Positions 48,257 to 50,422 of a stretch of 64,000 nt of DNA are shown piece by piece. This DNA comes from an uncultured Myxococcales bacterium. Its GTDB lineage: Bacteria; Myxococcota_A; UBA9042. Location: NCBI GenBank assembly GCA_937910235.1, contig CALENB010000101.1, forward strand, positions 2,098-66,097, in the 5' to 3' direction. Below the pieces are notes generated by a model, which was not told the DNA's origin, did not search any database, and saw only the letters and a program-made list of their open reading frames with translations. A program made the position numbers and the translations under genes. The first letter of the stretch is position 1. Each line of letters begins with the position of its first letter.

Positions 48257-49951
48257 TTACGCGTACATCGCCGCAAACGTCTCGGCAAACATCTGATGAA
48301 CCTGCCGGCGCCTCACCTTGAGCGTCGCCGTCAGCAGCCCAGACTCGATCGTCAGCGGGCTGTGGATCACCTCAAAGCGCTTAATGGTCTCGTGACGCGC
48401 CAGCCCGGCGTTCACGGCCGCGATGCGCCGCTCGACCTCTTCTCGCAGCAGCGCTCGGACCTGGGCTTCGGACAGGTCGACCGGCTTTGCGCCCCGAAAT
48501 GCGGCCTCTGCGAGCGGATCGAGCCAGACGCCAGCCGTCAGAAAACGCCGACCGTCGCCGAAGAGCACGAGGTGTCCGACCAGATCGTCGTCCGCAAAAC
48601 GCAGCTCCACATTCGCCGGCGGCACGTTCTTGCCGCTCGCGAGCACAAAGATGTCCTTCTTTCGGTCGATGATCTGAAGAAAACCGTCCTCGGTGAACCG
48701 CCCCACGTCGCCCGTGCACAGCCAGCCATCGTCGGTGAACGCTGCGGCCGTCGCCTCCGGGTCCTTGTGGTAACCCGCGAAGATGTTGGGTCCGCGCGCC
48801 AAGATCTCGCCATCGTCGGCGAGGCGGAGCGCCACCGACGGCAGCGGCCGCCCCACCGAATCGAAACGGAACGCGTCTGGCCGGTTGAGCGTCAGCGTCG
48901 GCGACGCCTCGGTGAGACCGTACCCTTCGATGATCAGCAGACCGTTGCGATGAAAGAACTGCTTCACCGCGACGCTCAGCCCTGCGCCACCCGAGAGCAG
49001 AAAGTGGAAGCGACCACCGGTCAGCTCGCCGAGCCGCTGCGCTTGGGCCGCCTCGTCGCCCGCCTTCATCGCAAACGACGCGAGCTTCTCGAAGACCGCC
49101 GGCACGCTCATGAAGACGGTGGGCCGCACTTCGGGCAGGTGCTTGAAGAGGTCAATCGGCTCACACAGCCAGGTCTCGAAGCCCAACGTGTTGCCCAGGC
49201 ACGCCTCGCCAAAGCCGAAGATATGGCTCATCGGCAGCCACAGCAGATCGACATCGGGGGCCTCGCCATCGGGATCAGCGAGCATCGTGGCGTTGCACTG
49301 CAACCAGTCTCGGCCGTTGCTCGCGACGTTGAGGTGGGTCAGGGGCACGCCCTTGGGTAGCCCCGAGGTGCCCGACGTGTAGAGCATCACGGCGCCGTCC
49401 TCGAGGGAGATGGCGTCGAGGAGCCGGCCGATAGCGCCTGTGTCCTCGCCGTGCAGCGCCGCGCCGATCTCAAGCGCTTCGGAGAGGTTGTGCGCCGCCA
49501 GGGCGGGGCCGGTGGCGGCGCCGTCGAAACGCACCACCTGTGGCGGCGTGGGCAGCGGCGCCAGCGCCTCGTGCAGCTTGTCGGCGAGCGGGTCCGTCGC
49601 CACAAACACAAAACTGGCGTCGCTATGACCCACCACGTGCCGCACCTGCTCAGCGGTGCAGCTCGCATACACCGGCACCATCACGCCACCCGCTGCCTGG
49701 ATAGCCAGCGCGGCCGTCATCCATTGCACGCTGTTTGGCGCCAAAATCGCCGCCCGATCACCCCGCTGCAGGCCCGCTGCGCGCAGCCAGAGGGCGAGAT
49801 GCTGAATGTCTGCGGCGAAGGCCCCCCAGGTCACGTCGCGCCAGCCATCGCCGTCGGGGACGTGAAAACGCACCCGTTCGCTGCGGGAGGGCAGCGCGTC
49901 AAAGACGATGCAAGGCGCCGGCTTGGGGGCGAGGTAGGGCGTAGGATCCAT
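48257..49951 (-). CDS. AMP-dependent acyl-CoA synthetase/ligase embedded in the PhaC2 operon
   Basis: [13 protein letters not shown] AMP-binding motif. Gaps of 3 nt and 23 nt to its flanking genes imply one transcript. Confidence 0.75.
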   Translation of the reverse strand: [564 protein letters not shown]

Positions 49952-49954
49952 CGC

Positions 49955-50422
49955 TCAAAGCTCCTTGCTGCGCTTCTTGGAGGCCGGTTTTGCGGCCGGT
50001 TTTGCCGTCGGTTGGGCGTCAGGCTGTGCGGTCGGCTGTGCGGTCGGCTGTGCCGCCGCTGTGACGGCTCGCACCGTCTGCAGGGCCTCGATCAGCACCG
50101 CGTCGCGCTCGGCTAAGGCGCTGACCAAGGTTCGGATCTCGTCTCGCTGCACCGCGAGCTGCTCCTCCAAGTCCATCATCCGGCTGCCGAGCTGATGCAC
50201 CTCGTGCAGCATCCGCTCCTGGTCCCGCTTCACGGCCACGCCCGCCTGCCCCCACAGGGTCGCCGATTGGTGGTCGGCCTTGGCCTTGGCCTTCGCAGCC
50301 GCGGTGAGCATGGCGCCAGCGGGGCCGAGCAACATGGGGCTCTTCATCACCTGTTCCATCCACGTCGCCGTAGCGTTCTCCCATGCGTCGAAGCCGCCTT
50401 TCCAGGTTTTCCAGGTGTCCAT
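49955..50422 (-). CDS. Small Trp-rich/coiled-coil protein, putative PHA synthase partner subunit (PhaE/PhaR-subunit-like) or phasin
   Basis: 155 aa. The N-terminal W-x2-W-x6-W segment and C-terminal coiled coil resemble the 147-aa protein upstream of phaC at 57924. It is the first gene of the PhaC2 operon. Confidence 0.4.
   Translation of the reverse strand: MDTWKTWKGGFDAWENATATWMEQVMKSPMLLGPAGAMLTAAAKAKAKADHQSATLWGQAGVAVKRDQERMLHEVHQLGSRMMDLEEQLAVQRDEIRTLVSALAERDAVLIEALQTVRAVTAAAQPTAQPTAQPDAQPTAKPAAKPASKKRSKEL

Follow-up and report, generated by a model that had tools for sequence, protein, structure and literature searches.

An AMP-forming acyl-CoA ligase gene lies between the genes for a PhaE-like protein and a class-III-like polyhydroxyalkanoate synthase in a gene array conserved across Myxococcota

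The 64,000-nucleotide (nt) stretch of DNA analyzed here (positions 2,098 to 66,097 of contig CALENB010000101.1 from an uncultured Myxococcales bacterium; hereafter the window, whose own numbering is used throughout) carries on its minus strand a predicted polyhydroxyalkanoate (PHA) synthase operon in which a gene for an acyl-CoA ligase is embedded. In the list of open reading frames of the window, the three genes follow one another, from 5′ to 3′, as mini-phaE (49955-50422; 155 residues; ATG start), coding for a short PhaE-like protein, the gene for an AMP-dependent acyl-CoA ligase of the ACSL/FadD type (48257-49951; 564 residues; ATG start), and phaC2 (47202-48233; 343 residues; GTG start), coding for a class-III-like PHA synthase catalytic subunit. 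An earlier note on this DNA had been attached to positions 48257-50422, a span that covers mini-phaE and the ligase gene only and leaves phaC2 just outside. The gene order that it gave and the two gaps, of 3 nt between mini-phaE and the ligase gene (49952-49954) and of 23 nt between the ligase gene and phaC2 (48234-48256), agree exactly with the coordinates. Each start codon is preceded by a Shine-Dalgarno-like site: AAGGAG 6 nt 5′ of the mini-phaE ATG, AAGGAG 9 nt 5′ of the ligase ATG and GGAGG 7 nt 5′ of the phaC2 GTG. The window DNA is chromosomal with a G+C content of ~67%, and its close relatives all come from Myxococcota genomes. Genes of the same 155, 564 and 343 residues were found in independent gene calls on public contigs carrying identical proteins, and identical proteins are present on aquatic-metagenome contigs (ERR2206756/PRJEB22997). 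On one further contig with an identical PhaC2 (ERZ23486348 scaffold_2953), the ligase is called as a 251-residue gene only (2222-2977), the cause of which may lie in a gap of the assembly, in a frameshift or in a disruption at the level of the strain.

When one genome per GTDB species was scanned with a profile of PhaC2, 568 relatives were returned, of which the best 80 loci were retrieved and compared with the window proteins by tblastn. In 77 of the 80, the gene immediately preceding that of the PhaC2 orthologue encodes a ligase orthologue (48-64% identity); in two of the other three the PhaC2 gene sat at a contig end, and only one locus, L044, was truly without a ligase. Counted over the informative Myxococcota loci, the ligase gene was kept upstream of phaC2 in 75 of 76, an adjacency far beyond chance. 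The loci span Polyangia, Myxococcia, Bradymonadia, Nannocystales, Kofleriaceae and Sandaracinaceae, with Polyangiaceae, Labilithrix, Byssovorax, Archangium, Myxococcaceae, Bradymonadales and Persicimonas among the named groups, and include one from a cultured carrier, Labilithrix luteola DSM 27648 (CP012333.1, about 1,859,850-1,863,010). The earlier note had called the arrangement unusual, which holds insofar as a ligase gene lies outside the model class I-IV layouts; it is, however, the rule across Myxococcota rather than the peculiarity of one genome. L044 (CAYVQF010000033.1, 7608-9002), in which mini-phaE (32% identity at the protein level) is followed by phaC2 with no ligase gene in between, was the sole informative genome of that kind, and its layout could be ancestral or the result of a secondary loss. 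No gene was conserved 3′ of phaC2, the best cluster found there being common to 5 of 59 loci. Two loci with a typical myxobacterial array (L001 and L050) come from metagenome-assembled genomes labeled ‘uncultured Enterobacteriaceae’ and ‘Planctomycetota’, labels that are probably binning or taxonomy errors.

Packing of the three genes was tight in the orthologous loci, too. The median distance was 15 nt at the mini-phaE/ligase junction and -4 nt at the ligase/phaC2 junction, where 34 of 69 junctions were 4-nt overlaps (ATGA or GTGA, checked by eye in five loci); start codons at the junctions were chosen heuristically, so that a few large negative gaps are artefacts. The medians are robust. A terminator scan detected no terminator-like site within either junction of the trio in the window, and the count of such sites across the region did not exceed the shuffled expectation. 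Likewise, an Rfam scan near the trio returned no element and a promoter scan of the junctions nothing specific. Given the tight spacing, the missing terminator and the frequent overlaps in orthologous loci, the three genes very likely form, as judged from sequence, one transcription and translation unit, in line with what the earlier note had deduced from the spacing in the window. On its 5′ side, mini-phaE is separated from the preceding gene, which encodes a lipoprotein (lipoprotein B, see below), by a spacer of 127 nt (50423-50549) that measures only ~20 nt (median) in other genomes. Three direct repeats (GTCGTCGGTG...) at 17-nt spacing occupy positions 50444-50501 of this spacer and may represent a candidate lineage-specific internal promoter or operator. 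Because the repeat-bearing spacer divides the lipoprotein gene from mini-phaE, the trio may also have a promoter of its own in the window.

The first product of the trio is one of at least 263 proteins in a family (A2) whose members typically measure ~93 residues. The family matches the Pfam model of the class III synthase partner subunit, PHA_synth_III_E (PF09712), which was hit by 28 of the 35 orthologues scanned; seven of ten orthologues inspected singly passed the 25.7-bit gathering score (27.2-32.4 bits). In the ten, the match was always confined to positions ~230-311 of the 311-position profile and never extended to the full-length PhaE architecture. The window protein itself produced no PF09712 match at E ≤ 1, Pfam reporting just a PT repeat in its tail. 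The PhaE-like assignment made in the earlier note thus stands on the orthologues and for the C-terminal part of the model only, and by sequence mini-PhaE appears to be the C-terminal ~80-residue module of PhaE occurring as a free-standing protein. The window copy consists of a ~93-residue core extended by a PT/AKP/Lys-rich tail (the C-terminal ~35 residues, encoded at 49955-50060) that is absent from most of the ~93-residue orthologues.

The ligase matched Pfam AMP-binding and AMP-binding_C_3 with scores (235.3 and 33.3 bits) above both cut-offs. It fell below every named equivalog cut-off of NCBIfam, the top model being FadD11 (249 bits against a cut-off of 950), followed at a distance by FadD (139 of 884 bits) and a medium-chain ligase model (127 of 736 bits), the latter two being no nearer to the window protein than other ANL families. 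All catalytic motifs, comprising the YTSGTSG P-loop, the other adenylation and thioester motifs and Lys545 in TLKVRR, were invariant in 26 orthologues, for which reason we regard the protein as a complete and probably functional AMP-forming enzyme of the ACSL/FadD type. The closest solved structures are adenylation domains of carboxylic acid reductases (5mso best, E 8e-39), with assorted fatty-acyl-, malonyl- and feruloyl-CoA synthetases as further solved relatives. When 1.84 billion cluster representatives were searched exhaustively, the next relatives beyond the orthologue group were ordinary ligases of ~600 residues with 35-41% identity. No ligase-PhaC fusion was found among the top 150 relatives of the ligase (50%-identity representatives), the long ones (759-984 residues) carrying AMP-binding only or a TetR domain.

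PhaC2 matched PhaC_N and an alpha/beta-hydrolase model in Pfam. Its top NCBIfam model was that of class III PhaC, TIGR01836, at 245.8 bits, ahead of class I (150 bits) and class II (82 bits); as the curated cut-off of TIGR01836 is 365.3 bits, PhaC2 is not a class III member by that threshold. NCBI pipelines name its orthologues “alpha/beta fold hydrolase” because they score below that cut-off, whereas the JGI name is PHA synthase. The predicted catalytic residues (Cys134 in GYCMGG, Asp287 and His316) were invariant in 23 aligned sequences, among which was the paralogue PhaC1 described below. Over ~300 residues, PhaC2 aligned with the solved PhaC catalytic domains 5hz2, 5t6o and 9knj (E ~1e-30), all of them from class I synthases, with GYCMGG falling on GFCVGG; the segments bearing Cys, Asp and His match those of the solved C. 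necator PhaC (5hz2). The invariant triad and the alignment to solved PhaC structures argue that PhaC2 is of the synthase type and not of the lipase type. Its size fits that of a ~40-kDa class III subunit devoid of the long N-terminal domain of classes I and II, and a PhaE-like gene stands upstream of it in the same operon, with the ligase gene in between. Lys/Pro/Ala-rich C-terminal tails were seen in five PhaC2 orthologues (P0024, P0044, P0056, P0064 and P0110); such tails on mini-PhaE and PhaC2 are reminiscent of the histone-like tails of PhaF and PhaM, by which granules are anchored at the nucleoid.

The trio closes an array of seven to eight genes that opens with envelope proteins. The conserved, co-directional order is lipoprotein A, a lipoprotein alpha/beta-hydrolase, a TIGR04551 protein, lipoprotein B, mini-PhaE, ligase and PhaC2; in the upstream part of orthologous loci the median gaps were -4, -1 and 20 nt, and 4-nt stop/start overlaps occur at two upstream junctions in the window. 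All of these genes lie on the minus strand. Lipoprotein A (53991-55064) is the first conserved gene of the array, its position being kept in ~50 loci. In the window, it is preceded by a gene for a transporter of the major facilitator superfamily (MFS; 55139-56536, minus strand; Pfam MFS_1, 4.6e-39), present at the head of the array only there and in one other locus (L008, 377-1552, the sole tblastn match among the loci); the transporter could provide an inner-membrane uptake step or be an unrelated insertion. Lipoprotein B (‘up323’; 50550-51473), which has a signal/lipobox-like N-terminus, was found directly 5′ of mini-phaE in 60 loci. The two lipoproteins are 37% identical and bracket the esterase and barrel genes; they end in an identical FETASELRRL C-terminus, and neither matched Pfam, NCBIfam or the PDB save for an EF-hand-like loop of 19 residues, C(I/K)PN(L/H)DGxIxASE, with similarity to EF-hand proteins such as lanmodulin in the PDB (E ~3e-4). 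AlphaFold modeling of the lipoprotein from the two window paralogues alone yielded no usable fold (predicted local distance difference test score, 30).

The alpha/beta-hydrolase encoded between lipoprotein A and the TIGR04551 protein (53083-53994, minus strand; Pfam Abhydrolase_1, 1.4e-30) resembles serine esterases and lipases. The start of its gene and the stop of the preceding one overlap by 4 nt, and the N-terminus of the protein, VKRHAYPIVALLGLLTLSASGC, contains a lipobox. Its best PDB match was 6i8w, an alpha/beta fold hydrolase, and its NCBIfam matches were generic and all under the cut-offs. The lipoprotein signal peptide (LSASGC) and these generic sub-cut-off esterase matches led us to discard the idea of a cytoplasmic thioesterase of the PhaG/RhlA kind. 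The TIGR04551-family protein (51485-53086, minus strand; 342.9 bits against a cut-off of 300) was modeled as an outer-membrane barrel of 18 strands similar to Occ/OprD/MOMP proteins, which excluded a fatty-acid channel of the FadL type; sequence-profile searches with this protein against the PDB and Pfam returned nothing. The outer-membrane carboxylate channels of the Occ/OprD group are thus, by prediction, the nearest known system for this component, Occ channels being carboxylate-specific (PMC3260308). A GGDCxDCDSGD motif is present in most TIGR04551 orthologues, and both of its cysteines are missing from the window copy (HGGDGMESDTGD).

Divergently from the array, on the plus strand, runs a second group of PHA genes located 9 kb away. 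It comprises a gene for a PhaR-type PHA regulator (56940-57764; PHB_acc_N, 88 bits; TIGR01848, 88.1 bits against a cut-off of 109), which was divergent from the array in ~50 loci; a gene for a small phasin-like protein (57924-58367) between phaR and phaC1, without a family match and weakly conserved in nine loci; and phaC1 (58367-59446), coding for a second class-III-like synthase that is 40% identical to PhaC2, likewise under the TIGR01836 cut-off (222 bits), and never adjoins a ligase in other loci. That the small protein might be a second PhaE was ruled out by hhalign, which gave a probability of 0.4% against the mini-PhaE profile. Through this divergent linkage to PhaR and to a second PhaC, the array is connected with PHA biology. 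Two copies of TTTGYGYGCTGCA, 22 nt apart, lie between the divergent MFS and phaR genes (56620-56654), and we take them to be a candidate TGC-rich PhaR operator.

Beyond the other end of the trio, and convergent with phaC2, a plus-strand gene encodes a FabG/PhaB-like short-chain reductase (46418-47185; Pfam adh_short_C2, 7.8e-47; PRK08217, 265.6 bits against a cut-off of 298; PhaB models, 134-137 bits), with orthologues beside phaR in L044, L049 and L051. Its convergence with phaC2, only 16 nt separating the two stops, means that a conventional supply route may coexist with one through the ligase. The earlier note had raised the possibility of an unusual monomer or a salvage route in place of the supply by PhaA/PhaB; with this reductase adjoining PhaC2, and with PhaC1, PhaR and the phasin-like protein 9 kb off, such a replacement was not borne out. 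Also past PhaC2, 1-5 kb away on the plus strand, are two further genes. One (45146-46231, ~1 kb from PhaC2) codes for a lipoprotein carrying a domain of extracellular medium-chain-length PHA depolymerases (NF050057, 289.8 bits; cut-off, 270); the other (42184-43962), which precedes it, codes for a second ACSL-type ligase sharing 28% identity with that of the operon. A salvage lifestyle would be in keeping with both genes.

The arrangement may be compared with three known systems. PHA synthase classes and operons are textbook matter founded on a few Proteobacteria, cyanobacteria, Bacillus and haloarchaea. In the class III PhaE-PhaC systems of Allochromatium vinosum, cyanobacteria and haloarchaea, and in the class IV PhaR-PhaC system of Bacillus, a ~40-kDa PhaC with a Cys-Asp-His triad is combined, as here, with a non-catalytic partner whose gene lies upstream. 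In the classical bacterial enzymes of class III, PhaE is a full-length protein of ~40 kDa, whereas the partner described here is of ~93 residues (155 in the window) and homologous to the last ~80 profile positions, the C-terminus of PhaE, only. Unlike in either class, the ligase gene is inserted between the subunit genes and the operon runs upstream into envelope genes. The second system is that of Pseudomonas putida, where PhaG acts as a thioesterase on 3-hydroxyacyl-ACP and the freed 3-hydroxyacids require FadD1/AlkK to become CoA esters usable by PhaC (bioRxiv 10.64898/2025.12.18.695248), and where FadD1 re-activates PhaZ-released monomers in the PHA cycle (PMC8764540). There too, an AMP-forming ligase is proposed to activate or re-activate free (R)-3-hydroxyacids for PhaC1/C2, such that a ligase feeding PhaC is not in itself a new mechanism; the Pseudomonas synthases are, however, of class II, with fadD1 and alkK outside phaC1ZC2D, as opposed to a ligase inside a class-III-like phaE-phaC operon, and the linked hydrolase is a lipoprotein in the present case and not a cytoplasmic PhaG or PhaZ. 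The third, mycobacterial Rv1683/BCG1721, is taken up below. The literature searched contained no description of a phaE-phaC operon with an embedded ligase, nor of the array in Myxococcota, although absence there is no proof. The system would work as a two-component synthase of the class III/IV kind to which the ligase step of Pseudomonas has been joined. The arrangement is real, conserved, made of familiar parts and apparently undescribed, and the mechanism proposed for it has a precedent.

From the observed gene identities, motifs, packing and phylum-wide conservation, we infer a substrate for the ligase, a coupling of the ligase to PhaC2 and an origin of the acids at the envelope. That the ligase activates free hydroxyacids for direct use by the polymerase had been suggested in the earlier note and is plausible. 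A PhaE cut down to its C-terminal ~80-residue module would partner the class-III-like synthase PhaC2; free acids, (R)-3-hydroxyalkanoic ones or their relatives, would be turned by the ligase, with the use of ATP and CoA, into CoA thioesters; and the resulting hydroxyacyl-CoA would be polymerized by mini-PhaE/PhaC2. The position of the ligase gene between the subunit genes, its frequent translational coupling to phaC2, its strict conservation with intact catalytic motifs and the linkage to the genes for PhaR, PhaC1 and a phasin-like protein are the reasons for reading the ligase as feeding PhaC2. The free acids would probably arise in, or pass through, the envelope by salvage or import and would not come from PhaA/PhaB only. 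Since the upstream genes all encode envelope proteins, synteny and fold similarity suggest that the acids are made or imported there. As a whole, a translationally coupled PHA module whose embedded ligase feeds PhaC2 with acids that are probably envelope-derived is the best explanation that we can offer for the locus, one that we advance tentatively and that is quite possibly correct.

Several observations weigh against this explanation. PhaC2 and PhaC1 both score under the class III cut-off, and their polymerase activity is itself predicted from sequence. Class III and IV synthases normally use short-chain monomers, usually supplied by PhaA/PhaB, and a PhaB/FabG-like reductase adjoins phaC2. 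The substrate of the ligase is not readable from motifs or family models, leaving its hydroxyacid specificity presumptive, and one of its segments resembles the general fatty-acyl-CoA-synthetase signature, with which plain fatty acids fit equally well. As L044 has no ligase gene, at least one lineage exists in which the mini-phaE/phaC2 pair can dispense with it. Neither the depolymerase nor the second ligase was near the cluster in the 80 other loci, which ruled them out as members of the conserved system, and the 127-nt spacer could split the trio transcriptionally from the envelope genes in the window. Finally, PHA accumulation in Myxococcota is barely documented, the sole hint in the literature searched being a preprint on fluorescence-activated cell sorting and sequencing in which a Nannocystis variant was enriched.

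The foremost alternative sees in the ligase an ordinary enzyme of fatty-acid activation, which would prepare imported or recycled fatty acids for beta-oxidation; PhaC2 would receive monomers only indirectly, through enoyl-CoA hydratase or reductase steps, and the operon would co-regulate the use of fatty acids with storage, hydroxyacyl-CoA not being handed over directly. Membership of the ligase in an ACSL/FadD11/COG1022-like group with AMP-binding_C_3, its generic long-chain nearest relatives, the adjoining FabG/PhaB-like reductase and the resemblance of the lipoprotein esterase to 6i8w and other generic esterases and lipases are all compatible with such a role. The conserved array, however, includes no beta-oxidation or PhaJ-type gene and nothing is kept 3′ of phaC2, while the placement of the ligase gene between the synthase subunit genes, often with a 4-nt overlap with phaC2, is tighter than co-regulation needs. 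We therefore consider this alternative unlikely, while retaining it as a serious competitor.

Less probable still is that the ligase and the PhaC-like protein act as a pair in neutral-lipid or other acyl transfer, after the model of Rv1683/BCG1721, and not in PHA synthesis. Myxobacteria make lipid bodies, and PhaC-like and acyl-CoA synthetase domains are coupled in the mycobacterial proteins, whose family model NF005898 (994 residues) aligned through its N-terminal ~320 positions with PhaC2 (77.6 bits) and PhaC1 (67.6 bits), revealing that fusions of the two types of domain exist. Rv1683 has been reported to combine the functions of an acyl-CoA synthase and a lipase on lipid inclusions (PMC10699116; PMC5571309). 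It differs, however, in consisting of one polypeptide of ~1000 residues with the hydrolase domain first, as opposed to separate genes; in its nucleophile, Ser150 of a lipase GXSXG motif (PMC10699116), where PhaC2 has the invariant Cys134 in GYCMGG; and in its role in triacylglycerol turnover on lipid inclusions (PMC10699116) without a PhaE, PhaR or phasin context, as opposed to the linked genes for a PhaE-like protein, PhaR and a phasin-like protein described here. The NF005898 scores are, moreover, far under the cut-off of 925, and the top 150 ligase relatives contained no ligase-PhaC fusion. We find this alternative improbable.

Somewhat further down the scale is a CoA-independent route, in which the ligase would be an acyl-AMP or acyl-ACP synthetase that loads a carrier, or the cysteine of PhaC2 within a PhaE-ligase-PhaC2 complex, with no free CoA thioester being formed. 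The best solved match of the ligase, 5mso, comes from an enzyme that loads a phosphopantetheine arm, relatives in its group include acyl-ACP synthetases, and translational coupling to phaC2 would favor a complex. Set against these points are the intact and invariant C-terminal domain and A8/A10 motifs typical of CoA-forming enzymes, and an array devoid of any carrier-protein gene; in addition, we know of no precedent for the CoA-independent loading of a PHA synthase. We regard this route as very improbable. Finally, that the adjacency is meaningless, the ligase gene having been inserted between ancestral phaE and phaC2 genes and carried along passively, would account for the pair without a ligase in L044 and yet is scarcely credible in view of its retention in 75 of the 76 informative loci from several classes, at ~50-60% identity, with invariant motifs and frequent stop/start overlaps, all of which point to selection on the arrangement.

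If the ligase does feed PhaC2 with envelope-derived acids, the entire array could be an envelope-to-granule salvage line present in all of Myxococcota. In such a line, the esterase, at the surface or in the periplasm, would free (R)-3-hydroxyacids, either from polyester of exogenous origin or from lipids of prey, e.g., lipid A, the Occ-like channel and the lipoproteins would import them, the ligase would activate them and a minimal PhaE/PhaC2 synthase would directly re-polymerize them, such that prey carbon would be stored while bypassing central metabolism. This fuller chain of steps is a speculative extension that we deem unlikely to hold in its entirety.

Should the coupling of the ligase to PhaC2 prove correct, the array would represent a fifth, phylum-wide PHA layout, in which a truncated PhaE and a divergent PhaC are accompanied by a built-in CoA ligase. 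It would also constitute a natural and compact cassette for the conversion of free hydroxyacids into polyester, of the kind that engineers now assemble by hand from PhaG or a thioesterase, AlkK or FadD, and PhaC. The uncharacterized TIGR04551 family would thereby gain its first functional context, and a testable link would exist between an envelope hydrolase and channel and carbon storage in a phylum that has many predators and whose PHA metabolism is almost unstudied.

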